Positions 1-12,521 of a stretch of 64,000 nucleotides of DNA are shown in pieces. The stretch's first letter is position 1. The number at the start of each line of letters is the position of its first letter. A model generated the notes under the pieces. It saw only the letters and a list, made by a program, of their open reading frames with translations, was not told where the DNA came from and searched no databases. A program made the translations under genes and the position numbers. The DNA is from an uncultured Chloroflexia bacterium (GTDB lineage: Bacteria; Chloroflexota; Limnocylindria; QHBO01): NCBI GenBank assembly GCA_963704115.1, contig CAVPGY010000007.1:120142-184141 (forward strand), read 5' to 3'.

Positions 1-61
1 TCGTCATGGGGTCGTCGGATGGCATCGCGATACGGTACCGCGCCGCCGCAACGGGCCCGCG

Positions 62-1171
62 CTACCGCGCCTCGAGGACGAAGAGCGGGATGAGCCGCTT
101 CGTGCGGCGCTGGTAGCTCCCGTACAGCGGGAACTGCTCGACGACGAACGGCCACAGGCGCGCCCGCTCGTCGGGATCGGTCACCTCGCGCGCGGTCATC
201 TCGGTCGTCTCCGTGCCGCGCTGCACGGTCGCGTGCGGATCAGCGCGCAGGTTGTGCACCCAGGCCGGATGCCGCACGGACCCTCCGCTCGAGCCGACGA
301 TGACCAGCGAATCGCCATCGGGCCACGCGTAGAGCTCGAGGGTCCGCGCCGTGCCGGTCCGGGCGCCACGGGTCGTCAGCATGATCCGCAGCCGCATCGG
401 GCTCGAGGCCGTCACGGGACGACCGGGTCCCCCACCGCCACCGTTCCGGGCGTCACCACGTCGGCGTACACGCCGAAGTCGATCTTCCGACCGTCGCGCA
501 TGCCCGCGGTATGCCTTGATGGCGTGCAGGGTCGGGAAGTCGCGGTGCCCGGTGTCCGGGTCCTGGGTCGTGATCACGCATCGCGGATCCGGCCGCGTGA
601 CGCGGACGACCGCCTGGCCGATGCGGATCTCGCTCCCCATCCACTCGTCCTCCTGGTGCGGCCGCGCGCCGGCGACGGCGATCAGCATCCGGAAGCGCCG
701 CGCGTCCAGGGGCTTTCCTTCGTTCGCCTGGCGCTGCAGCTCCTCGACCGATGCCTCCGACAGGATCGAGACCGGATTGCGATCCTGCTCGCCCGGCAGC
801 CGCTCCGACCGGATGAGCTGGAGGGGTCGTCCGGCATGCGCCGAGAGCGCGTCGGCCCAGGGACCGATGACCGGGCGCGCGGCGAAGCGGCGCTCGTAGA
901 TCACCGGGTGGATCGGCTCGCCGAGCGCGACCTCGCCGGTCACCATCTCGCCGTTCGGGAAGGTGAGGGTCAGGCGTTCCGGGTCGCGCTCCAGTCGCGC
1001 GGCGACCTGGACGAGCGGGCCGAACTTCGTGCCGTCGAAGATCCGGCCGTCGGCGAGGAGCGTGAAGCGCCGATCGTCGAGGACGCCATGCTCCTCCAGC
1101 TCGATGCGGTCGGGATGCTGGAGCGCCAGCCCGCGCACGGGCGTGACGGAGAGGCGGGAGACGGTGAGCAC
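62..1171 (-). CDS. MOSC-domain protein fused in frame to a deazaflavin(F420)-dependent nitroreductase (DDN) split-barrel domain; possibly two adjacent genes with no intervening stop
   Basis: The N-terminal ~230 aa has the MOSC beta-barrel and MOSC core (..RPDPRCVITTQDPDTGHRDFPTLHAIKAYR..). The C-terminal ~140 aa matches the DDN family (MLTTRGARTGTARTLELYAWPDGDSLVIVGSSGGSVRHPAWVHNLRADPHATVQ..WPFVVEQFPLYGSYQRRTKRLIPLFVLE). It is one uninterrupted 369-codon ORF with a GTG start at 1171. Confidence 0.6.
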   Translation of the reverse strand: MLTVSRLSVTPVRGLALQHPDRIELEEHGVLDDRRFTLLADGRIFDGTKFGPLVQVAARLERDPERLTLTFPNGEMVTGEVALGEPIHPVIYERRFAARPVIGPWADALSAHAGRPLQLIRSERLPGEQDRNPVSILSEASVEELQRQANEGKPLDARRFRMLIAVAGARPHQEDEWMGSEIRIGQAVVRVTRPDPRCVITTQDPDTGHRDFPTLHAIKAYRGHARRSEDRLRRVRRRGDARNGGGGGPGRPVTASSPMRLRIMLTTRGARTGTARTLELYAWPDGDSLVIVGSSGGSVRHPAWVHNLRADPHATVQRGTETTEMTAREVTDPDERARLWPFVVEQFPLYGSYQRRTKRLIPLFVLEAR

Positions 1172-1202
1172 AGCCCGACGATAGCGCGTCCGCGCATCCG
1201 GG

Positions 1203-1545
1203 GCTTGCCGATAGATCGGGCATCGGAGCGCACCATGCCCGCTCCTACCCGGGGCCGCCCGATGTATCGGGCACAGCGGCGCGTCAGGACCGGATCCCCG
1301 CCACTCCTGTGACGTGGTGCCCGATCTATCGGCGCCGCCGAGCCCAACGGCGGCCTCCCGTGCCGTGGTGCCCGATCTATCGGCGCAGTTGAGCCCAACG
1401 GCGGCCTCCCGTGCCGCGGTGCCCGATCTATCGGCGCCGCCGAGCCCAACGGCGGCCTCCCGTGCCGCGGTGCCCGATCTATCGGCGCCGCCGAGCCCAA
1501 CGGCGGCCTCCCGTGCCGCGGTGCCCGATCTATCGGCGCCGTCAG
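1203..1545. repeat. Family A intergenic repeat locus 1: five tandem 51-bp units (copies starting at 1320, 1371, 1422, 1473, 1524) preceded by one inverted (about 1207) and one degenerate (about 1258) copy of the palindromic core
   Basis: Direct reading shows the unit (gtg)cccgatctatcggcgccgccgagcccaacggcggcctcccgtgccgcg repeated with >90% identity. The core gcccgatctatcgggc is a 7+2+7 imperfect palindrome. The array fills the gap between the ASCH gene stop (1542) and the MOSC gene start (1171). Confidence 0.85.
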
Positions 1546-2024
1546 GCCTCGCCGACAGCGATCGGCTCCGGGTAGCGCTCCACCAGCCGGAATCGCTGAC
1601 AGACGATCAGGGTGTCGTCATCGAGCCGCCAGTCGGGATCACCCAGGCCCTCGCGCAGCTCGTCGAGGTAGGTGGTGAAGTACCGCTCGTGGGCGGCGCG
1701 CCAGTCGGCGGCGTCGGCAAAGCCCTCTCCCTCGTCGCGCGCGAACGCGTCGTCGACATCGGCCATGCGGAGAATGCGGCACTCGGTCGTCTCGATCACG
1801 CCCACGAACCTGCCATCCGCCCCGATGACCGCCTCCCGCATGCCGGGGACCGGCACGGTCTCACCGTCGAGCTCGTACTCCACCAGCAGGCCGGCGGTGG
1901 CGGTCTTCGTCCCGGCCAGCACCAGGTCGACGAGCTCGCGCCGCAGCTCGCTTCCCGGGTCGGCGAACCCGCAGACCTGCATCCCGCGGAAGGTCGAGGT
2001 GCCGGCATCGGCGGCGTCGTTCAT
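1542..2024 (-). CDS. ASCH (PUA-like) domain protein
   Basis: Matches the ASCH pattern: ELVDLVLAGTKTATAGLLVEYE..GETVPVPGMREAVIGADGRFVGVIETTECRIL..DDAFARDEGEGF..WRAAHERYF. Start taken at MNDAADAG (ATG 2022-2024); the longer ORF upstream is low-complexity. Confidence 0.7.
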   Translation of the reverse strand: MNDAADAGTSTFRGMQVCGFADPGSELRRELVDLVLAGTKTATAGLLVEYELDGETVPVPGMREAVIGADGRFVGVIETTECRILRMADVDDAFARDEGEGFADAADWRAAHERYFTTYLDELREGLGDPDWRLDDDTLIVCQRFRLVERYPEPIAVGEA

Positions 2025-2275
2025 CACCGGGCATTGTGCCGCGTGGCGTCCACCACCTACGCCGCGCACACGCACCGAACAGGGAGGACCGATGGCGTTC
2101 GAACGCACCGTGGCCGGGACCGGCCCGAACCCCGAGCCGGCGCCGGCGCCAGCACCCTCCGAAGGACCATCCGGCGCGCGACCCACGCCGATAGCGCTCC
2201 AACTCCAGGCCCTCGCCACGGTCGGTCTTGGCGCCGGGTGTACGCTCGACCTTCACACCCTGTGGAGGACGGCCA

Positions 2276-2596
2276 GTGCCAAAGTATCTCATCATCGGCA
2301 GCTACACCGCGGCCGGTGCCAAGGGACTGATCAACGAGGGGGGCAGCGGCCGCAGACAGGCCGCCAGCGACGTCATCGGCTCTGTCGGCGGAACGGTCGA
2401 GAGCTTCTACTTCGGCTTCGGGGGCGACGACTTCTATGTCATCGCCGACTTCCCGGACCACGCCGCCGTGGCCGCGGCCAGCCTGACCGTGGGATCGAGC
2501 GGAGCGGCCAGCATCCGGACCGTGGTCCTGATCACGCCGGAGGAGCTCGACGCCGCATCGAAGCTGAGCCCCACCTACCGCCCGCCGGGCGCCTGA
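2276..2596 (+). CDS. GYD-domain protein
   Basis: VPKYLIIGSYTAAGAKGLINEGGSGRRQAASDVIGSVGGTVESFYFGFGGDDFYVIADFPD is the GYD-family signature. GTG start at 2276 is preceded by GGAGGA (2264-2269). Confidence 0.8.
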   Translation: MPKYLIIGSYTAAGAKGLINEGGSGRRQAASDVIGSVGGTVESFYFGFGGDDFYVIADFPDHAAVAAASLTVGSSGAASIRTVVLITPEELDAASKLSPTYRPPGA

Positions 2597-2642
2597 CCCA
2601 GCACCCGACATCGGCGCACCACTCGAGAGGAGCGATTGACCG

Positions 2643-3038
2643 ATGCAGACCACTACCACGCACCCGAACGCCGAGCTCGGCCGGCGGTTGATGGACGCCT
2701 TCAATGACGTGGACATCGCCACCATCGACAGCCTCATGTCCGATGACATCGCCTGGCACCAGATCGGCGGATCGACGATCCACGGCAAGGAGGCGCTGCG
2801 GGAGCAGATGAGCTCCATGATGGCCCAGGGAGGCGATGACGGGATCACCGCAACGGTGCACGACGTCGTCGCCAGCGACGAGCACATCATCGCCCTCGTC
2901 GACGCCCACGCGACGATGGGCGGGAAGACCTTCGACTATCGGACCGCGGAGATCATGCACGTCACCGACGGCAAGGTCACCGAGCGGTGGGCCTTCTCCG
3001 ACGACACCGCCGCGATCACGAAGTTCTTCGGCGGCTGA
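2643..3038 (+). CDS. SnoaL-like / NTF2-like superfamily protein (ester cyclase/ketosteroid isomerase-like)
   Basis: 131 aa with an NTF2-like pattern (LGRRLMDAFNDVDIATIDSLMSDDIAWHQIGG..ERWAFSDDTAAITKFFG). A GAGGAG RBS lies 8 nt before the ATG. Confidence 0.7.
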   Translation: MQTTTTHPNAELGRRLMDAFNDVDIATIDSLMSDDIAWHQIGGSTIHGKEALREQMSSMMAQGGDDGITATVHDVVASDEHIIALVDAHATMGGKTFDYRTAEIMHVTDGKVTERWAFSDDTAAITKFFGG

Positions 3039-3224
3039 CTCCCTCCCACTCCACCGATGATCGCCGCCGGCCCTCTCGCCGGCGGCGGTCGCGAGTTCGC
3101 TCGACACGAGACGGCGCATGAACCGGTCCGTGCGGGTGACGGTCGAGCGTCACCGATGGGCCAGCGAGTCTGTCCGGTACCGGAGCGCGCATCCACCGGC
3201 GACCGTACCGTGCGACAGTGGCGC

Positions 3225-3545
3225 GAGTTACCGAGGCGGGTATCCAACGACGATCCGAGGACCCGCCAGTGGCCGCACGTTACCGCGCACGGAACATTGC
3301 CGACCGGATTCGACTCCGAACGGCCTCCCGGTGTCCGTTGGATACCCGTACGGGAAACCGCGCGGAGTGGGGCCACGGGCCTCCCGGCCGTTGGTTGCCC
3401 GTACGGGAACCGCGCGGAGTGGGGCCACGGGCCTCCCGGCCGTTGGATACCCGTACGGGAAACCGCGCGGAGTGGGGCCACGGGCCTCCCGGCCGTTGGA
3501 TGCCCGTACGGGAACCGCGACCACGGGCTTCCCGCAGCGCCGCCT
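3225..3545. repeat. Family B MITE-like element (about 3230-3365) whose 3-prime terminal repeat region is amplified as four 53-bp tandem units (about 3335-3545)
   Basis: Inverted termini ggcgggtatccaacg (3236-3250) and ccgttggatacccgtacggg (3335-3354). The unit ccgttggatacccgtacgggaaaccgcgcggagtggggccacgggcctcccgg repeats with a period of 52-53 bp at 3335, 3388, 3440 and 3493. cccgtacggg is an internal perfect palindrome. Confidence 0.8.
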
Positions 3546-5139
3546 CAGCCCGCGGCCTCGAACTCGACGCGAGGACGAGGCTCCGGTGTCGGCGCCGTTG
3601 ACGGAGCTTCGGGAGGATCACCGCCCAGCGATTGCCCGCGAAGGGAGACCACGGCCAGCGCCGCCAGCCCGACCGCCACGACCGCGGCGATGCCCGCGGT
3701 GAGGTGCATCCCGGCCACGAACGCCTCGCGGGCCACCTCCAGCACCACCGCACCAAGCTCCGCCGGCAGCTCCGCGGCGACGGCAACGGCACCGCCGAGC
3801 GTGTCCCGGGCCACCTCGGCGGCGGCATCCGGCACGGCGGCCGGCAGCTGGGCACCCACCGCGCCGCGGTAGATCGCGACGCCGACGCTGCCGAGCATCG
3901 CGATCCCCAGCGCCCCGCCGAGCTCGGCGGCGGTCTCACTGATCCCGGACGCGGCGCCGGCGCGCTCCGGCGGGGCGGTACCGACGATCAGCTCGGTGGT
4001 CAGCCCGAAGACGGGCGCCAGGCCGATGCGAGATCACCACCGACGCGCCGACGAGCAGCGGCAGGCCGTTCGTCGCCCCGACGCCGACGAGCATCGCGAG
4101 ACCGATGGCGCCGATGAACAGTCCCCCGCCGATCAGGTACGCCGGGCGCACGCGCTGCACGATGCGCGGCGCCAGCTGCGACCCGACGATGAACGCCACC
4201 GCCGACGGCAGCGACCACAGCCCGGCATAGCAGGGGCGAGAGCCCGACCACGAGCTGGAGGTACTGCGCCACGAACAGGAAGTAGCCGACCATCACGAAG
4301 ATCGCCAGGAAGTTCACCGCCAGCGCCGCGTTGAAGGTGCGGATCCGGAACAGGCCCACGTCGATCATCGGGTCATCCAGGCGCATCTGGCGACGGACCC
4401 ACAGCGCGCCCACGCCGAGCCCGATGGCGATCGCCGCCACGGCCATGGCTCCGACGCCGTCCTGGGCGATCTCCTTCAGGCCGAAGATGATGGCCAGCAG
4501 CGCCACGATCGACATCCCGGCGCTCAGCAGGTCCAGCCGGCCGGCGTTCGGGTCGCGGTACTCCGGCAGCACCCGCGGCCCGAGGATGAGGAGCAGCGCC
4601 ATCACCGGCAGGGCCAGCAGGAAGACCGATCCCCACCAGAAGAACTCGAGCAGGAGTCCGCCGAGCACCGGGCCGACCGCGCTGCCGGCGCTGAAGGCGC
4701 CGATCCAGACGCCGACCGCGATCGAGCGTTCCTTCGGGTCGGTGAACATGTGGAAGATCAGGCTCAGGGTGCTGGGCGCCAGCGTCGCGCCGCTGATGCC
4801 GAGCAGGGCCCGCGCCACGATCAGCATCTCGGCGCTCGTGCTGAACGCGGCGATGATCGAGGTTGCGCCGAACACCGCCGCGCCGATGAGCAGCAGCCGG
4901 CGGCGGCCGATGCGGTCGCCGAGCGTGCCCATCGTCACCAGCAGTCCCGCGACGAAGAAGCCGTAGATGTCGATGATCCACAGCAGCTGCGCGCTCGTCG
5001 GCTGGAGGTCGGCCGTCAGCTTGGGTACGGCGAGGTGGAGGACGGTCAGGTCCATCACGTACATCAGCGCGGAGAGCGCGAGCACGAAGAGGCCGATCCA
5101 TTCGCGTCGGGTCGCCTTGGGGGGAACGTTCGTCGTCAT
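3545..5139 (-). pseudogene. MFS transporter, DHA2 (14-TM drug:H+ antiporter) family, interrupted by about 3 frameshifts
   Basis: Consecutive pieces of one DHA2 protein lie in three frames: 5139-4230 (MTTNVPPK..AQYLQLVVGLSPL), 4199-4020 (AFIVGSQLAPRIVQRVRPAYLIGGGLF..) and 3898-3545 (MLGSVGVAIYRGAV..C-terminus). Confidence 0.7.
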
Positions 5140-5359
5140 CGGTCCTTTGGTCTTCTGGGGTTGCGTCGTCTCATTGGACCGATGCGGCCCGCGGAAATCA
5201 TCGGTCAAACGACGCGCATGCTCCGCGCATCATGGATGACGCGCGTGCCGAGCGACTCCGAGAGCGTTATCCAGCACGGCATGTGCCGGCGCGAGCCGAT
5301 GAGTTCCGCAAGCGACCGCCGTCCTATCCGCGAAACCAGAGACCCGAGAGGAAGCGCCA

Positions 5360-6763
5360 GTGATCTCACCGACCGTCGCGGCCACCACGCTCGAGGAGCT
5401 GCGCTCCCGGCTGAGCGGCCGCCTCGCCACCCCGTCGGACCCTGACTACGAGGATCTGCGCGCCGTGTTCTACGGCGGAGGCCTGCGGCCCGCGGCGGTG
5501 GCGCGCGTGGCCGGCGCGGGCGACATCGCGACGGTCATCGGCTTTGCGCGCGCGACCGGCACCGAGCTCGCCGTGCGCGGCGGCGGGCATTCCGGGGCCG
5601 GGCACTCGACGACCGACGGCGGAATCGTGATCGACATGCGCGATCTCAAGCGGATCGAGGTCGACCCCGAGGCGCAGACCGCCTGGGCAGGCGCGGGCAC
5701 CACGGCAGCGGAGGTGACCACGGAGGTCGCCAGACACGGCCTCGCCATCGGCTTCGGCGACACCGGCAGCGTGGGAATCGGCGGCATCACGCTCGGCGGC
5801 GGGGTCGGCTTCCTGGTGCGGACGTTCGGGATGACGATCGACAACCTCGAGGCCGTGGAGCTCGTCACCGCCGACGGTCAGCTCCTCGCCGCGGATGCGG
5901 ATCATCACCCGGACCTGTTCTGGGCGCTCCGCGGCGGCGGCGGCAACTTCGGCGTCGCCACCCGCTTCAAGTACCGGCTCCGGGAGCTCCCGCAGATCAC
6001 CGGCGGGATGCTGGTGCAGCCCGCGACGGCCGAGACCGTGGCCGCCTTCATGGCGGCGTCCGAGGCGGCACCCGAGGAGCTGTCGGCGATCGTCAACGTC
6101 ATGAGCTGCCCGCCCCTGCCCTTCGTGGCCGAGGAGCACCACGGCTCGCTGGTGATCTTCGCGCTCATGTGCTTCGCCGGCGAGGCCGATGCGGGCGAGG
6201 CGGCCATGGCGCCCTTCCGCGCCGTCGCCGAGCCGCTGGGCGACCTGGTGCGGCCGATGACCTATCCCGAGCTCTTCCCGCCGGAGGAGGCCCCGCCGGC
6301 GGATCCCGATGCCGACCCGTCGACGGTTCCCGGGTACGCGAGCCTCACGCTGTTCACCGACCGGATCGGGCCCGAGGAGTCGGCGCTGATCGTCGAGCGG
6401 CTGGGATGGTCGGATTCGCCGATGCGCGTCGCCCAGCTGCGCGTCCTGGGTGGTGCGATGGCCCGCGTGGCGCCCGAGGCCACCGCCTACGCCCATCGGC
6501 AGCGCCGGGTGATGGTCAACGTGGCGGCCATGTACGCCGGGCCCGCGGATCGCGTCGTCAAGGAGGCCTGGGTCCACGACCTCGCCGCATCCCTCCAGCG
6601 CGGAGAGGACGCGGCCTACGTCAACTTCGTCAACGACGAGGGCCCGGAGCGTGTTCGTGCCGCCTATCCCGGCGCCACCTGGGACCGGCTGACCGCGATC
6701 AAGGCCCGGTACGACCCGGATAACCTGTTCCGCCGCAACCACAACATCCCGCCGGCGGCCTGA
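5360..6763 (+). CDS. FAD-linked oxidoreductase (PCMH-type FAD-binding domain plus berberine-bridge-enzyme-like C-terminal domain)
   Basis: FAD-binding_4 motifs (AVRGGGHSGAGHS, LRGGGGNFGVATRF) and a BBE-like C-terminus (YVNFVNDEG..RLTAIKARYDPDNLFRRNHNIPP). GTG start at 5360 with a GAGAGGAAG RBS. Confidence 0.85.
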   Translation: MISPTVAATTLEELRSRLSGRLATPSDPDYEDLRAVFYGGGLRPAAVARVAGAGDIATVIGFARATGTELAVRGGGHSGAGHSTTDGGIVIDMRDLKRIEVDPEAQTAWAGAGTTAAEVTTEVARHGLAIGFGDTGSVGIGGITLGGGVGFLVRTFGMTIDNLEAVELVTADGQLLAADADHHPDLFWALRGGGGNFGVATRFKYRLRELPQITGGMLVQPATAETVAAFMAASEAAPEELSAIVNVMSCPPLPFVAEEHHGSLVIFALMCFAGEADAGEAAMAPFRAVAEPLGDLVRPMTYPELFPPEEAPPADPDADPSTVPGYASLTLFTDRIGPEESALIVERLGWSDSPMRVAQLRVLGGAMARVAPEATAYAHRQRRVMVNVAAMYAGPADRVVKEAWVHDLAASLQRGEDAAYVNFVNDEGPERVRAAYPGATWDRLTAIKARYDPDNLFRRNHNIPPAA

Positions 6764-6766
6764 GGC

Positions 6767-7090
6767 ATGCCAGTGGACGCCGGTCTGGCCGGGGCACTCA
6801 GTCTGCGGGATCTGCCGGCGGCCTTCGAGCGCTTCCGCGTCACCCTGGCGTCGGGCGACAGCCTCGCGACGCGAGCGGACGACTGGGCGGGGTGCCTGGT
6901 GCTCGTCGAGCGCGGCGCCGTCGAGGTCGAGTGCGCCGCAGGCGGCCGGCGATCCTTCGCCGCCGGCGATCTGCTCGCGCCCGCCTGGCTGCGAATCTGC
7001 ATGCTCCACAACCCCGGCACCGTCGAGGTGAGCCTGCTCGCGGTGCACCGGCGGGGCGACTCCAGGGCTGAAGGAGAGCGAACAACATGA
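6767..7090 (+). CDS. Small cupin-like protein (tentative)
   Basis: A 107-aa ORF in the gap between the FAD oxidase and the DUF1905 gene. The segment GCLVLVERGAVEVECAAGGRRSFAAGDLLAPAWLRICMLHNPGTVEVSLLAV resembles a cupin barrel. The start signal is weak. Confidence 0.35.
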   Translation: MPVDAGLAGALSLRDLPAAFERFRVTLASGDSLATRADDWAGCLVLVERGAVEVECAAGGRRSFAAGDLLAPAWLRICMLHNPGTVEVSLLAVHRRGDSRAEGERTT

Positions 7091-7536
7091 CCTTCCGCAC
7101 CGTGATCGAGCGCGGCGGCACGACGGCGACGGGCATCCGCGTCCCCGACGAGATCGTCGCCGGGCTGGGCGCCGGCAAACGGCCAGCAGTCACCGTCCAC
7201 ATCGGCGGCTATCGGTACCGGAGCACGATGGCGGTGATGGACGGCGCCTTCATGCTGCCGCTCTCCGCCGAGCACCGGGAGGGGGCCGGCGTGGCCGCGG
7301 GCGACGAGATCGAGGTGACCCTCGAGCTCGACACCGCCCCGCGCGAGGTGGTCGTGCCGGGCGACCTCGCCGCGGCGCTCGACGCCAACCCGGAGGCTCG
7401 CCGCACGTTCGACGCGCTCTCGTACAGCAACAAGCGGTTCCATGTCGAGCCGATCACCGGCGCCAAGACCGAGGAGACCCGGCAGCGCCGGATCGACAAA
7501 TCGATTGCCGTCCTGCGCGAGGGACGGCCGCGGTGA
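7087..7536 (+). CDS. DUF1905 / YdeI-OmpD-associated family protein
   Basis: TTATGIRVPDEIVAGLGAGKRPAVTVHIGGYRYRSTMAVMDGAFMLPLSAEHR matches DUF1905 and the C-terminus (PEARRTFDALSYSNKRFHVEPITGAKTEETRQRRIDKSIAVL) matches the YdeI-like tail. A GAAGGAG RBS precedes the start. Confidence 0.8.
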   Translation: MTFRTVIERGGTTATGIRVPDEIVAGLGAGKRPAVTVHIGGYRYRSTMAVMDGAFMLPLSAEHREGAGVAAGDEIEVTLELDTAPREVVVPGDLAAALDANPEARRTFDALSYSNKRFHVEPITGAKTEETRQRRIDKSIAVLREGRPR

Positions 7537-7548
7537 TCCTGCCCATGG

Positions 7549-8586
7549 TTGGCAGGATTGACCGATAGCGTCGATGCCAACGACCCACGGAGTACGATGC
7601 GAATGATGACCGAGACGAGCGCTGCCGAAGCCGTCCGGGCCCCCGAGGAACAGCTCGAGCCCTACCGGAGCGAGCTCACTGCCTATGCCTACCGCATGCT
7701 GGGATCCGCCTTCGAGGCGGAGGACGCCGTGCAGGAAACGATGGTCCGTGCCTGGAAGGCGCTCGACAAGTTCGAGGGCCGCTCGCAGCTGCGATCCTGG
7801 CTGTACCGCATTGCCACCAACGTGTGCCTCGACATGCTCGGCTCGCGCCAGCGGCGCGCCCGGCCGATGGACCTGGAACCCGCCTCCCACGCCGATCGCC
7901 CGCTCCCTCCCCCGCTCACCGAGGCGGTCTGGATCGAGCCCGCGCCCGATTCGCTGGTCGTCCCCTCCAGCGGCGACCCGGCCAACGTCGCGCTGGCGCG
8001 GGAATCGGTGCGGCTGGCCTTCATGGCCGCCCTCCAGCACCTGCCGCCGAAGCAGCGCGCGGTCCTCATCCTGCGCGAGGTCCTGCGCTGGCGGGCCTCC
8101 GAGGTCGCGGAGCTGCTCGACACCTCGGTCGCATCGGTCAACTCCGCGCTCCAGCGGGCCCGGGCGACGCTCGACTCTCTGGGAGACGGCGCGGGGGCCG
8201 GGCCGCTCGACGAGGCCTCCGAGGAGCTGCTGGCGAGCTACGTGGCCGCGTTCGAGTCGTACGACATGGAGCAGCTCACGGCCCTGCTCCACCGCGACGC
8301 GACCTGGAACATGCCGCCGTACGCCCTGTGGCTCAACACCCACGAGGACATCGTGGGGTGGTGCCTCGGGCCGGGCCACGCCTGCCGTGGCTCGCGGCTC
8401 ATCCGCACGTCGGCGAACGGCGCGCCCGCGTGGGGCCAGTACAAGCCCGCGGCGGATGGCGGCTGGGAGCCATGGTCGCTCCAGGTGCTCGAGACGCGCG
8501 ACGGCAAGGTCAGCGGCATCACCTTCTTCCTCGACACGGCCCGCTGGTTCCCGCTCTTCGACCTCCCGCCGCACCTGGACGCCTGA
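7549..8586 (+). CDS. ECF-type RNA polymerase sigma-70 factor with a C-terminal SnoaL-like extension (ECF41/SigJ-like)
   Basis: Sigma region 2 (YRSELTAYAYRMLGSAFEAEDAVQETMVRAWKALDKFEGRSQLRSWLYRIATNVCLDML) and region 4 (RAVLILREVLRWRASEVAELLDTSVASVNSALQRAR) are followed by a ~120-aa NTF2-like tail. The true start may be downstream (MTETSAAE at about 7603). Confidence 0.8.
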   Translation: MAGLTDSVDANDPRSTMRMMTETSAAEAVRAPEEQLEPYRSELTAYAYRMLGSAFEAEDAVQETMVRAWKALDKFEGRSQLRSWLYRIATNVCLDMLGSRQRRARPMDLEPASHADRPLPPPLTEAVWIEPAPDSLVVPSSGDPANVALARESVRLAFMAALQHLPPKQRAVLILREVLRWRASEVAELLDTSVASVNSALQRARATLDSLGDGAGAGPLDEASEELLASYVAAFESYDMEQLTALLHRDATWNMPPYALWLNTHEDIVGWCLGPGHACRGSRLIRTSANGAPAWGQYKPAADGGWEPWSLQVLETRDGKVSGITFFLDTARWFPLFDLPPHLDA

Positions 8587-8611
8587 CGTCTCGAGGAGCC
8601 CCCGTGACGGT

Positions 8612-8745
8612 TGCCGGGGCGGGTATCCAACGGCGATCGAGCGGCTCGCCGGTGGCGGCGAGGTACCGCGGCGGGAACATCTCCGACCGAATTCGGGGTC
8701 CCACGTCCGTTCGGCGTCCGTTGGATACCCGTGCGGGTAACCGCC
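8612..8745. repeat. Family B MITE-like element, second copy (single, not amplified)
   Basis: About 75% identical over ~135 bp to the 3230-3365 copy, with the same inverted termini (ggttgccggggcgggtatccaacgg and ccgttggatacccgtgcgggtaacc, about 22/25 complementary). cgtgac occurs just outside both ends. It lies in the sigma-factor to MFS gap. Confidence 0.75.
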
Positions 8746-8885
8746 CCACCTCGTGACCCTGGGACGGCGCCTCGGCGCCCGGCGCCCGCGACGTGCACGC
8801 AGGCACTGGAACGCGGGCGGTAGCATCGGTTGATGCCGCAGCCGAGCGTACCGTCAAGCGTCGCTGAACCCAGGGCGCAGGCCTG

Positions 8886-10174
8886 ATGCCCAGCGCTGCC
8901 CGGGCAGTCCAGCGAACGTACCTCGTGCTGACGCTGCTGACGACGCTCGCCGCCTCGTTCATCTGGGGCGTGAACACGCTCTTCCTGCTCGACGCCGGGC
9001 TGAGCAACGCGGAGGCATTCGCGGCCAACGCGTTCTTCGCCGCCGGCCAGGTGATCTTCGAGATCCCGACCGGCGTGGTGGCCGATACGCGCGGGCGTCG
9101 GTTCAGCTTCATCCTCGGCGCGGCGACGCTCCTCGCGTCCACGCTGCTCTACCTCGTGATGTGGCAGATCCAGGCGCCGTTCATCGGCTGGGCGCTGTCG
9201 TCGGCGCTGCTCGGCCTGGGCTTCACGTTCTTCTCCGGCGCCACCGAGGCGTGGCTCGTGGACGCGCTGACCGAGACGGGCTACGAGGGCGACCTGGAGA
9301 CGGTGTTCGGCCGCGCCCAGGTCGTCGGCGGTGGCGCGATGCTCGTCGGATCGGTCGCTCGGTGGCTTCGTCGCCCAGCTCACCGACCTGGGGATGCCGT
9401 ACATCGTGCGCGCGGCGCTGCTCGGGCTCACGCTGGTGGTGGCATGGGCGTTCATGCGCGACATCGGCTTCACGCCGGACAGGTCCGCCTCGCCGATCCG
9501 GGCCGTGCGCACCGTCATCGACGGTGCGGTGGACGGCGGCCTGCGCAACCGCCCGGTCCGCTGGCTGATGTTCGCCGCGCCGTTCACCACGGGCGTCGGC
9601 TTCTACGCGTTCTACGCGCTCCAGCCGTACCTGCTGGAGCTGTTCGGCGACCCCGACGCCTACGGCATCGCGGGGCTCGCCGCGGCCATCGTGGCCGGCA
9701 CGCAGATGATCGGCGGCTGGTCGGTGCGCTGGGTGCGCCGCTGGTTCTCCCGACGGACCGACGCCATGCTCGTGCTGGCCGTCGTCGGCGTCGCGGCGCT
9801 CGTGCTGCTCGGGCGTCATGCCCCTGTTCGTGGTGGCGGTGGTGCTGCTCGTGCTCTGGGCGCTGGCATCGGCCATCGAGGAGCCGATCCGTCGCGCGTT
9901 CCTCAACGCGCTGATCCCCTCGCAGCAGCGCGCGACGGTGCTCTCGTTCGACTCACTCATCGGGTCGGCCGGCGGCGTGGTGATCCAGCCGGCCCTGGGC
10001 CGCGTCGCCGACCTCAACGGCTACGCCGCCTCGTACCTGGTGGGCGGCGCGGTCCAGGCCCTCGCGATCCCGTTCATCTTCCTGGCTCGACGCGAGCGGG
10101 CGCATTCCGACCCGATCTTCGTCGAGCCTCCCGAGCCTCCCGAGCCTCCCGAGCCACTCGACGCCGATACATGA
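8886..10174 (+). pseudogene. MFS transporter interrupted by 2 frameshifts (near 9350 and 9820)
   Basis: Three consecutive frames (ORFs 8886.., 9331.., 9818..) read through one MFS protein: TM1-6 MPSAARAVQRTYLVLTLL..; the middle GFVAQLTDLGMPYIVRAALLGLTLVV..; the C-terminus MPLFVVAVVLLVLWALASAIEEPIRRAFLNALIPSQQRATVLSFDSLIGSAGG.. Confidence 0.7.
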
Positions 10175-10204
10175 GGCGCGGGTGCGCACGAGAGGGCTCT
10201 CGTG

Positions 10205-10345
10205 CAGCACCCGGCCGATAGATCGGGCACGGCGACGCGGGAGGACCTGGGTCGAGCAATGCACGCGTCGTGCTGCCCGATCTATCGGGCGCGGAGACGA
10301 CCCACAACGCCTCGAGCGCTCCCCGGCCCGATAGATCGGCGAGCC
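10205..10345. repeat. Family A repeat locus 2: three copies of the palindromic core in alternating orientation (about 10213 reverse, 10272 forward, 10328 reverse), spaced 56-59 bp
   Basis: gccgatagatcgggcac / tgcccgatctatcgggcgc / gcccgatagatcggcgag read directly. The locus sits between two convergent genes (MFS end 10174, MetE-like end 10375), an arrangement typical of REP/BIME-like elements. Confidence 0.8.
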
Positions 10346-10374
10346 GTGCTGCGCCGGCGCGTGGCGGTCGAGCG

Positions 10375-11436
10375 CTAGCGGGAGCCCACGGCCGCACCCT
10401 GCACGATGGCGCGGTGCAGGTCCAGCAGGCCCGGCACCTCCACACGCTCCGCACGCGCCATCCCGCACTCGGTGCACACTCCCCACCGCCGGTCGCGCAG
10501 CTGCGCGTCGATGAGCTCGATCTGGGCCTCGGTGGTGCCCGCCTCCTGCCGTTCCGGGTGATACGGCACGAGTGCGAAGGCGATGTCGGTCTCCGCCGGC
10601 ACGCGCAGGTCGGCGAGGGCCGCGAAGTACGCGGGGTCACGCTGGTACTGCGGGACGGTGAAGGCGAACCAGGCGATCGGTCGGGATGCATCGGCGACCA
10701 GGCGGTTGGCGACGCGCACCTGGAGCTCGAGCGACTCGGGCTCGCGGAAGTGCTGATGCTGGTAGTCCCCGTAGCAGAGGTGGAGGCCGACCGGGACGTC
10801 GGCCGGGACCTCGTCCACGGCCGCGACGAGCCGCCCGACGACCGCCTCGAAGTCCTGGTTCGCCGTGGCCGGGAACGAGCCGACGAGGATCCCGAACTCG
10901 ACGGCCACGTCCCATTGGACGGCGATCTGGTCGTGCGGCAGGGCGTCGAGGACACGGTGGAGATCGGCGAACAGGGCCCGCGTGTACGAGGGCTCGAGCC
11001 GATCCTGGTCCTCGTCCACGACCCAGCTGTTGATGCTGGCCAGCGGGGTCGGGTACTGGACCTGGAACCGGGTCCCTGCGGGGATCACACCCTCGTCGCG
11101 GAGGCGACGGAACGTGTCCCAGCTCGCGAGGTACGCATCGGCATACCCGAGATCCGGCCAGTCGATGGCGTCAGGATCGGTTCCCTCCGCCAGGCGCACC
11201 CTCGGCATCTGGGTGTAGGCGCCGCCGGCCGGCATGTCGACGACGCCCGCCTGCTCCAGACCGGGCGTCGCCCAGAATCGCTGGAGCTGGAAGAAGATCC
11301 AGCCCTGCCGATCGCCGGTCTCGCCGTCGGAGTAGCGGGGCGCCAATGGACCGATGCGCTCGCCGAGCTCGCGGAAGACCGTCTCGGTGTCGGGCAGGTT
11401 GATGCTGCCATTGAGGTGAGCGAACGTGGGTGGCAA
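10375..11436 (-). CDS. UROD/MetE-like superfamily protein (cobalamin-independent methionine-synthase-like, single-domain)
   Basis: 353 aa with Zn-ligand-like spacing as in the MetE C-terminal domain (..LHLCYGDYQH.., ..CTECGMA..). The family assignment is tentative. Confidence 0.55.
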   Translation of the reverse strand: MPPTFAHLNGSINLPDTETVFRELGERIGPLAPRYSDGETGDRQGWIFFQLQRFWATPGLEQAGVVDMPAGGAYTQMPRVRLAEGTDPDAIDWPDLGYADAYLASWDTFRRLRDEGVIPAGTRFQVQYPTPLASINSWVVDEDQDRLEPSYTRALFADLHRVLDALPHDQIAVQWDVAVEFGILVGSFPATANQDFEAVVGRLVAAVDEVPADVPVGLHLCYGDYQHQHFREPESLELQVRVANRLVADASRPIAWFAFTVPQYQRDPAYFAALADLRVPAETDIAFALVPYHPERQEAGTTEAQIELIDAQLRDRRWGVCTECGMARAERVEVPGLLDLHRAIVQGAAVGSR

Positions 11437-11621
11437 CGCAAGCCTCCTTGCCTATCGCACCTGGCGGGGGCACCGCTTCCGTCGTGAGGACGATCGGGTC
11501 GGTTGCCGGGCCGTCGACGAGCCAGGACTCTCGGGCCACTCTGGATAGGTGTCGTCGTGACGACCGCCGGAATGTACCACGACCGCCTCGCTCAGGCACG
11601 CGGGATGCTTCATCGAGAGGC

Positions 11622-12521
11622 ATGACCACCACCGAACGTCCGCAGGACCCCCGCACCCAGCACGCGGAGCCACCGTTCCCGAAGCAGCAGCAGGAGCCGC
11701 CGGGCACCGAGGCCGACCTCCGGCCGACGGCCGATCACGGCGAGGAGACCTACCGCGGCAGCGGACGCCTCACCGACCGCGTGGCGCTGATCACCGGCGG
11801 CGACTCCGGCATCGGCAAGGCAGTCGCTATCGCCTTCGCCCGGGAGGGGGCGGACGTGGTCATCAACTACCTCGGCGCCGCCGAGGACGAGGACGCGGCT
11901 GATACCGTCCGCTGGGTGGAGAAGGCCGGCCGCCGGGGAATCGCTGTCCGCGGCGACATCCAGGACCCGGAGCTCTGCGTCGCCCTGGTCGAGCGCACCG
12001 TGGACGAGCTCGGCAATCTCGACATCCTCGTCAACAACGCCGCCTGGCAGGACTGCGGCGATCGTATCGAGGAGATGACGACCGAGGAGTGGCGGCGGAT
12101 CTTCGCCACCAACATCGAGGCGATGTTCCACCTGTCGAAGGCCGCCATCCCGCGCATGCGCGAGGGGGGCACGATTCTCAACACCGCCTCGATCCAGGCC
12201 TACTCGCCCTCTCCGGAGCTGCTCCCCTATTCGGCCACGAAGGGCGCGATCGTCACCTTCACCAAGGGGCTCGCCCAGGACCCGGGCATCCTCGAGCGCG
12301 GCCTGCGCGTGAACGCGGTGGCCCCGGGACCGATCTGGACGCCGCTCATCCCATCAACGATGCCGGCCGAGAAGGCCGCGACGTTCGGCGAGAACACGCC
12401 CCTCGGGCGAGCCGGGCAGCCTGCCGAGCTGGCCCCGATCTACGTGTTCCTCGCCTCGCAGGAGTCCAGCTACATCACGGGTGAGGTCATCGGCGTCACG
12501 GGTGGTCGTCCGCTGGGCTGA
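11622..12521 (+). CDS. SDR-family oxidoreductase (YghA/YhdF-like)
   Basis: TGGDSGIGKAVAIAFAREGADVV (Rossmann), NNAA, and a YSATKGAIVTFTKGLA catalytic YxxxK. ATG at 11622 with a GAGAGG RBS. Confidence 0.85.
   Translation: MTTTERPQDPRTQHAEPPFPKQQQEPPGTEADLRPTADHGEETYRGSGRLTDRVALITGGDSGIGKAVAIAFAREGADVVINYLGAAEDEDAADTVRWVEKAGRRGIAVRGDIQDPELCVALVERTVDELGNLDILVNNAAWQDCGDRIEEMTTEEWRRIFATNIEAMFHLSKAAIPRMREGGTILNTASIQAYSPSPELLPYSATKGAIVTFTKGLAQDPGILERGLRVNAVAPGPIWTPLIPSTMPAEKAATFGENTPLGRAGQPAELAPIYVFLASQESSYITGEVIGVTGGRPLG

Follow-up and report, generated by a model that had tools for sequence, protein, structure and literature searches.

The gap between two neighboring genes in the 64-kb stretch of DNA that we analyzed (64,000 nucleotides, hereafter the window) is largely occupied by a tandem repeat built on a palindromic core. 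The question is whether this repeat is a set of regulatory sites that serves the gene downstream, or one copy of a repeat family that is spread over the genomes of this lineage. The preliminary description of the locus had considered both, an iteron or operator array and a REP/BIME element. The host belongs to Candidatus Limnocylindria, an abundant and uncultured class of soil and freshwater Chloroflexota.

An array of palindromic cores between the ASCH and MOSC genes

Both genes flanking the array lie on the minus strand. The ASCH-domain gene (Pfam ASCH, 160-aa form, 1542-2024) ends in a TGA codon at 1544-1542 that abuts the array, and the MOSC gene (Pfam MOSC, 415-1171) starts with GTG at 1171. 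The intergenic gap measures 370 bp (1172-1541) and not the 363 bp given before. Tandem Repeats Finder delimited the tandem array to 1304-1541, with a period of 51, 4.7 copies, 95% matches and a score of 427. The array of five 51-bp copies described earlier is thus real, but it consists of four full units and a fifth that is truncated by the ASCH stop codon. On the plus strand GCCCGATCTATCGGCG appears five times without mismatches (1319, 1370, 1421, 1472 and 1523), the corresponding 12-mer cores CCGATCTATCGG being at 1321, 1372, 1423, 1474 and 1525. The 16-mer originally presented as the core of the repeat, GCCCGATCTATCGGGC, is absent from 1203-1545 and is found in perfect form only at 10275. 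Units 1421-1471 and 1472-1522 are identical, the remaining ones differ by 1 to 5 substitutions, and the spacers each form their own hairpin, GCCGCCG-agcccaa-CGGCGGC.

Two additional cores, an inverted and a degenerate one, had been noticed at about 1207 and 1258, and both were found again. The first is an inverted copy of the GCCCGATCTATCGGCG core with one mismatch at 1206 (terminal inverted core at 1206-1222, TGCCCGATCTATCGGC on the minus strand). The second is the palindromic variant GCCCGATGTATCGGGC at 1257-1272, a perfect palindrome with a 2-nt centre that represents the inner core of the opposite arm. The distance from the inner core to the core at 1321 is 62 bp, and the terminal core is 51 bp from the core at 1259, which gives seven cores in total at this gap. 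In gene orientation, the whole inserted composite element (1188-1541) starts 1 nt past the ASCH stop codon and contains five right-pointing cores, a 62-bp step, the palindromic core, a 51-bp step and one left-pointing core.

Allowing up to 3 mismatches, the core had 12 matches in the whole window where 3.4 were expected, a number that no shuffle out of 100 attained. The 30-nt tail of the unit had 4 occurrences against 0 expected, and the 12-mer CCGAT-NN-ATCGG 10 against 0.3, all of them in two clusters, the array and a second one at 10164-10339. A search of the 64 kb with a profile of the element retrieved exactly these two. Rfam 15, searched at permissive E-values over 1-12000, gave no match at E <= 1 over 1203-1545 or 10164-10339. 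We also considered that the unit could be coding, at 17 codons per 51 bp, and rejected it: the ASCH frame stops in every unit and no open frame continues into MOSC. Those frames that remain open through the array look like an artefact of the GC content.

The gene downstream of the array was first taken for a single MOSC-DDN gene. Actually, there are two genes. A frameshift near 503/504 runs the MOSC frame into that of a separate F420H2-dependent quinone reductase gene of the DDN family (62-397, minus strand, Pfam DDN domain), generating a 369-aa ORF (62-1171, minus strand). When the separate proteins of a relative were used in tblastn, MOSC residues 1-223 matched at 1171-503 and residues 223-252 in another frame at 504-415, and the DDN protein matched its own gene at 397-68. 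Besides, the AAGG motif that is kept upstream of the MOSC start in relatives reads tatcgtcgggct in the window. The frameshift and the altered ribosome-binding region are possible assembly errors and we have not taken them as gene decay. Both MFS transporter genes of the window (4000-5208, minus strand, and 8886-10174, plus strand) also look split between reading frames, and the split frames of MOSC and of the two MFS genes suggest either an error-prone long-read assembly or pseudogenes.

The same site in related genomes

We fetched the genomic context of several ASCH homologues, which are assigned to Candidatus Limnocylindria or Chloroflexota whenever their source is named. In locus L247 (ASCH 89% identical to that of the window) the gap to MOSC is 18-19 bp, with the arrangement TGA-aggcgctAAGGtcagc...GTG and no core, and the layout is the same in L002-L004 (83%), also with 18-19 bp and no core. 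The window DNA at 1188-1541 is missing from the empty sites of L247 and L002. Exactly one unit is inserted after the TGA in L248-L251 (89%), and the terminal core at 1206-1222 with its tail aligns with this single unit. In L005 (86%) the gap is 244 bp and holds five cores spaced 51/50/62/51, with non-identical spacers. The number of cores at the ASCH-MOSC site is thus 0, 1, 5 or 7 among the relatives and the window. A different situation is that of L252 (88%), with an unrelated 213-nt insert (1694-1880) without standard cores at the same spot; the position directly after the stop codon may be a general insertion hotspot.

In relatives with ASCH 83-89% identical, the 18-19 bp gap conserves an AAGG Shine-Dalgarno-like motif, indicating that MOSC is co-transcribed with ASCH and that the repeat is a variable insertion. 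The downstream genes overlap or abut in L005 and L002 (MOSC, a small ORF and DDN, followed in L005 by a metallophosphatase), so that the ASCH-MOSC-DDN region can be considered an operon. This does not agree with the initial proposal that the array sits where the MOSC promoter should be. A gap of 18 bp is too short for a promoter, and therefore the MOSC promoter cannot be placed in the array; a consensus scan of 900-2400 predicted neither a sigma-70-like promoter nor a terminator in it. Judging from the sequences compared, the array is an insertion inside an operon and not a promoter region. In the short-read data, a Logan contig (ERR12037370) carries SnoaL and ASCH genes identical to those of the window and ends 30 nt past the ASCH stop, which fits an assembly breaking at the array.

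A dispersed family with a constant geometry

The second element of the window (10164-10339) has the standard form, with four cores at 10164 (degenerate), 10215, 10277 and 10328 spaced 51/62/51. It is located between two convergent genes, the MFS gene that ends at 10174 and a gene of 353 aa that ends at 10375, and its degenerate outer core supplies the last four codons and stop of the MFS gene (GCC GAT ACA TGA). Around the orthologues of the 353-aa gene, relatives have other neighbouring genes and no element, and a clean empty site for this second element is not definable.

Scanning the genome collection with the 16-mer gave at least 113 loci, most of them single chance matches. Among the matches listed, only contigs of Limnocylindria/Chloroflexota MAGs carry multi-core clusters with a spacing of about 51 bp (L011, L013, L025, L029, L032, L089 and L090). 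Metagenomes were scanned with a pattern of two cores 47-55 bp apart, and at least 32 elements with four cores spaced 49-52/59-65/49-52 were found in soil metagenome and MAG contigs of GC >= 0.66. The two-core metagenome matches listed include unrelated REP-like families that share the CCGAT-NN-ATCGG centre, at other GC contents too. In viral contigs, control palindromes produced 1, 3 and 4 matches and the core pattern 8, numbers that are too small for a superfamily claim.

The standard element is about 190 nt long and is made of four units of about 30 nt, two pointing right and two pointing left, with the cores spaced 51/62/51. A short imperfect palindromic unit of this kind (20-40 nt) is a feature of REPs and REPINs. 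The aligned elements give the unit consensus (C)TC-nn-GCGC-n4-5-(G)TGC-CCGAT-NN-ATCGG-C, in which the 12-bp dyad CCGAT-NN-ATCGG is often extended to GTGCCCGAT..ATCGGGCAC. There are two elements in the 64-kb window, two in the 18-kb locus L005 and several contigs with them per MAG among the matches listed. Extrapolating from the two in 64 kb and a few unbiased loci, a genome might contain on the order of 100 elements.

Many elements have decayed cores. Window regions 1255-1332 and 10211-10288 are about 73% identical, and copies within a genome are often this far apart, a divergence by which they are older or more diverged than typical active REPIN populations. Two elements of L032 (659-849 and 2406-2597), 1.75 kb from each other, are closer, about 85% identical by eye with the spacers included and 80% as mean column identity over the whole alignment. 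Their similarity stops sharply at the element edges, indicating that whole elements have been copied. In L090 (5048-5314) a 151-bp block with three cores is duplicated in tandem, a case of local amplification outside the ASCH-MOSC site. The papers searched did not have the core sequence used in this sense, nor Limnocylindria and repetitive elements together, and the family, hosted by Candidatus Limnocylindria, is apparently undescribed.

Folding

About 20 of 31 elements fold in such a way that all or most pairs are mirror pairs, forming one long hairpin, spacers included, although the latter are not the same from element to element. When this mirror structure was laid on alignment A4, 76.6% of the cells paired, against 30-37% with the partners slid by 1-3 columns. 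The cells changed on both sides were 170, against 98.5 +/- 8.1 in shuffles (none of 500 reached 170), and the central dinucleotides co-vary within the outer core pair and within the inner core pair. The mirror pairing and the two-sided changes indicate that each element is a long imperfect palindrome. RNAalifold applied to 30 elements recovered the core-to-core helix only, because the spacers do not align, and for this reason the mirror structure was taken from single-sequence folds and then scored. For the ASCH-MOSC insert, the RNA of 1172-1545 (minus strand, 374 nt) folds at -226 kcal/mol with z = -5.35.

The same mirrored arrangement supports the early statement that the array is not CRISPR, and on firmer grounds than those given then, since the orientation of the core flips within each cluster. 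Besides, a typical cluster has four cores, no more and no less, and the spacers in one arm are complementary to those in the other.

Gene context and signs of mobility

Genes around the elements were called by a crude method based on GC content at the third codon position. Among the approximately 25 elements with both neighbours called, 14 had convergent neighbours, 10-11 co-directional and none divergent. Finding no divergent case in about 25 has P < 0.001 if a quarter of the intergenic regions are divergent. With these same crude calls, the elements were located downstream of genes, mostly 5-25 nt from the stop codon. In the DNA sampled, the core is dispersed and its context is convergent or co-directional, which agrees in kind with the distribution (hundreds of copies, mostly between convergent genes) that the preliminary description had named as favouring a selfish REP-type element over a regulatory array.

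No target-site duplication was detected. Around 29 elements no direct repeat was enriched at any offset pair (the best, 4-5 of the 29 for 3-4-mers, is the level expected by chance), and none was visible at the filled and empty ASCH-MOSC sites or at the boundaries of the L032 paralogues. GTAG, the tag that RAYTs recognize, was present in only 3 units out of 97 and CGTC in 14, without a fixed position in either case, so the family falls outside the two known REP superfamilies, which are defined by these tags (PMC3733652). The ORFs of the 1.7 Mb of fetched DNA had no phmmer match to E. coli RayT (E <= 10), and none of them had the HUH/Y motif pair searched as a regular expression, results that apply to the DNA fetched, as a single-copy gene could easily lie elsewhere in these genomes.

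Comparison with known repeats

The closest parallels are the REP/REPIN/BIME elements of Proteobacteria, mobilised by RAYT. They too are short, GC-rich, imperfect palindromes (PMC3337134, PMC3116915, PMC3733652), and in both cases inverted pairs make long hairpins, with spacers that differ between copies and yet stay complementary. Clusters or tandem arrays of up to about five units and presence that varies between relatives are also common to both, as are the extragenic location at the 3' side of genes between convergent or co-directional ORFs and the absence of target-site duplication. Specifically, published REPINs combine conserved REPs with spacers that vary without loss of the hairpin, and they occur in tandem arrays of as many as five (PMC3337134); REPs have been described as located mainly downstream of ORFs, between convergent or unidirectional genes (PMC3733652). 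In contrast, the family described here has neither the GTAG nor the CGTC tag and no RAYT gene in the 1.7 Mb of DNA, its standard form is a nested four-core palindrome (51/62/51) instead of a doublet, its host is an uncultured Chloroflexota class and its copies within a genome are fairly diverged. It is notable for the unusually rigid layout of four cores in nested hairpins.

In architecture, the BOX elements of Streptococcus pneumoniae (boxA - n x boxB - boxC) are also similar, with complementary terminal modules, internal modules of about 45-51 bp in variable tandem number, a copy number that varies among strains and copies that are often co-transcribed with the flanking genes; the number of boxB modules changes by slippage or unequal crossover (PMC3049150). 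There is no sequence similarity, the match being one of architecture only, and unlike BOX our element is GC-rich and the module amplified is a copy of the terminal core unit and not a distinct boxB.

The plasmid iterons and operator arrays share with the array regularly spaced short repeats with dyad symmetry. However, the repeats found here have no link with an origin, a Rep gene or a promoter, are absent from orthologous loci and are dispersed at the 3' ends of genes. The MIRU-VNTR loci of Mycobacterium, reportedly described by Supply and colleagues in 1997, are said to be tandem repeats of 46-100 bp between the genes of operons, with varying copy number. MIRUs carry small reading frames overlapping the stop and start codons of the genes on either side. 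Location between operon genes and variable copy number apply here as well, with 51 bp (17 codons) per repeat, but the ASCH frame stops in every unit, the other spacings of the family are not divisible by three, and the palindromic cores of the units occur in either orientation.

Origin of the array and alternative explanations

Our analysis indicates, with good probability, that the array is the amplified arm of a non-coding, hairpin-forming interspersed repeat of the REP/REPIN/BIME type (or BOX-like) in Limnocylindria-type Chloroflexota. It is ordinary biology in an understudied lineage. Of the two readings first considered, the REP/BIME one is supported by the dispersal of the core, found in a second cluster of the window, in related MAGs and in metagenomes, and by copies that lie between convergent or co-directional genes and never between divergent ones in the sample. 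The operator or iteron reading has against it the empty orthologous sites, the variable occupancy and the presence of the same core at unrelated 3' ends of genes. In its full form, that reading would make the cores operators or iteron-like sites for a dimeric DNA-binding protein controlling a MOSC/DDN promoter. The 12-bp dyad, the 51- and 62-bp spacings close to whole helical turns and the place of the repeats upstream of MOSC would agree with it. But relatives have the same operon with an 18-19 bp gap and no core, the site has 0, 1, 5 or 7 cores, the same core is found between convergent genes at 10164-10339 and in unrelated contexts, none of the approximately 25 classifiable elements is in a divergent (promoter) region and no promoter-like site is predicted within the array. 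The orthologous empty sites already refute it largely, and we consider it hardly tenable. A related concern is whether the number of units, or the array itself, could come from a mis-assembled repeat. Several apparent frameshifts in the window suggest error-prone long reads, and the short-read contig with identical SnoaL and ASCH genes stops 30 nt past the ASCH stop codon. Against this, the units carry distinct substitutions, and this position is also occupied by a multi-core insert in L005, which was assembled independently, and by a single unit in L248-L251, which makes an artefact very improbable; the exact number of units in the window array could nevertheless be off.

Two other explanations refer to the family as a whole. 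The elements could be maintained by the host as binding sites, landing pads of four sites under selection where genes end, used by a factor of the nucleoid, topoisomerase or terminator type in the way that gyrase and IHF bind BIMEs, local amplification just adding sites. This overlaps with the interspersed-repeat explanation and does not exclude it. The 51/62/51 geometry and the 12-mer are kept across sub-families with differing flanks and spacers, and the location is exclusively 3' of genes according to the crude gene calls. In addition, between window 10140-10380 and L005 7225-7515, which are probably orthologous, no difference is seen in the cores and the sequence right next to them, and the spacers are about half identical by eye (75% overall by tool). 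On the other hand, this comparison rests on one orthologous pair, the argument from core conservation has some circularity, the core having been used to find the elements, cores are decayed in many elements, presence varies between close relatives and there is no candidate protein known. All in all, selection by the host as the main explanation seems unlikely. An elaborated form, in which each element would be a pad of four phased dyads at the 3' end of a gene, recognized by a sequence-specific protein that might act as a topological or transcription-termination insulator in Limnocylindria, with dyad and phasing under selection and module amplification tuning occupancy at operons such as ASCH-MOSC-DDN, is more speculative and we give it a rather small chance. 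A classical MITE, that is, a deletion derivative of a DDE-type insertion sequence moved via its terminal inverted repeats with target-site duplication, would explain the inverted outer cores (the termini of the L005 element, GCCGATAGATCGGGCAC...GTGCCCGATCTATCGGC, are complementary at 17 of 17 positions), the highly base-paired structure and the size of about 190 nt. It is quite improbable considering that the 29 elements have no target-site duplication around them, that the element is GC-rich and not AT-rich, and that no larger element sharing these ends and enclosing a transposase gene was seen in the fetched loci.

Returning to an interspersed repeat with an amplified arm, the sequence of events could be as follows. 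An element evidently entered the ASCH-MOSC-DDN operon just behind the ASCH stop codon. In its ASCH-side arm, the module of 51 bp (core plus spacer) would then have been amplified from 2 to 5 cores, probably by slipped-strand mispairing or unequal recombination between adjacent direct repeats; this arm has 2 cores in standard elements, 3 in that of L005 and 5 in that of the window. The copying of whole elements without target-site duplication would presumably depend on a trans-acting enzyme that recognizes the hairpin, an IS200/RAYT-like transposase being one candidate. In the mRNA of the operon, the insert is predicted to form very stable stem-loops beginning only 1 nt beyond the ASCH stop. 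If they act as REP, BOX and ERIC elements do, these structures would protect the ASCH message upstream and would reduce or uncouple the expression of MOSC and DDN downstream, and the insert would provide neither a promoter nor an operator. Liang, Rudd and Deutscher are said to have reported in 2015 that a REP no more than about 15 nt from a stop codon can lower the translation of the gene preceding it.

These results remove a false lead, as the array is not a promoter, operator or iteron and the MOSC-DDN fusion is a frameshift artefact. They also have practical consequences. The elements can alter the expression of operons and the 3' ends of genes, one of them giving an MFS transporter gene its stop codon. 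Short-read assemblies break at the elements and contigs end there. Strain typing could make use of the variable-number tandem repeat loci to which they give rise. REPIN-type biology would be extended beyond the GTAG and CGTC superfamilies if a transposase or binding protein specific to the family came to light.

Other repeats and features in the region

An unrelated second repeat family is present in the window. It includes a 53-bp tandem array of 3.5 copies with the core CCCGTACGGG at 3335-3519 (region 3227-3519). In addition, the flank of this core recurs in inverted form at about 3228-3246, and a paralogue of 135 nt with 76% identity is found at 8610-8744. The layout of this second family is that of one amplified arm, as in the ASCH-MOSC element. 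Another REPIN-like family, formed by doublets of TAGGAGCCGATTCATCGGCGATCC and its inverse mostly about 55 bp apart (47-56), is abundant in metagenome contigs of GC about 0.65, with up to 3 doublets in 13.7 kb (loci L131, L135, L148, L157, L163-L166, L170, L176, L182, L193, L195, L199, L200, L209 and L237). The C-terminus of the MFS gene next to the second element (10123-10174) has a 9-bp tandem repeat, CGAGCCTCC, in 3.7 copies that encodes PEPPEPPEP. On the other side of that element, the 353-aa gene (10375-11436, minus strand) has no Pfam domain and a distant homologue named methionine synthase in UniRef. Immediately upstream of it there is a full-length match to the SAM riboswitch (RF00162) at 11449-11551 on the minus strand, with 39.7 bits (gathering score 44.4) and E = 3e-6.
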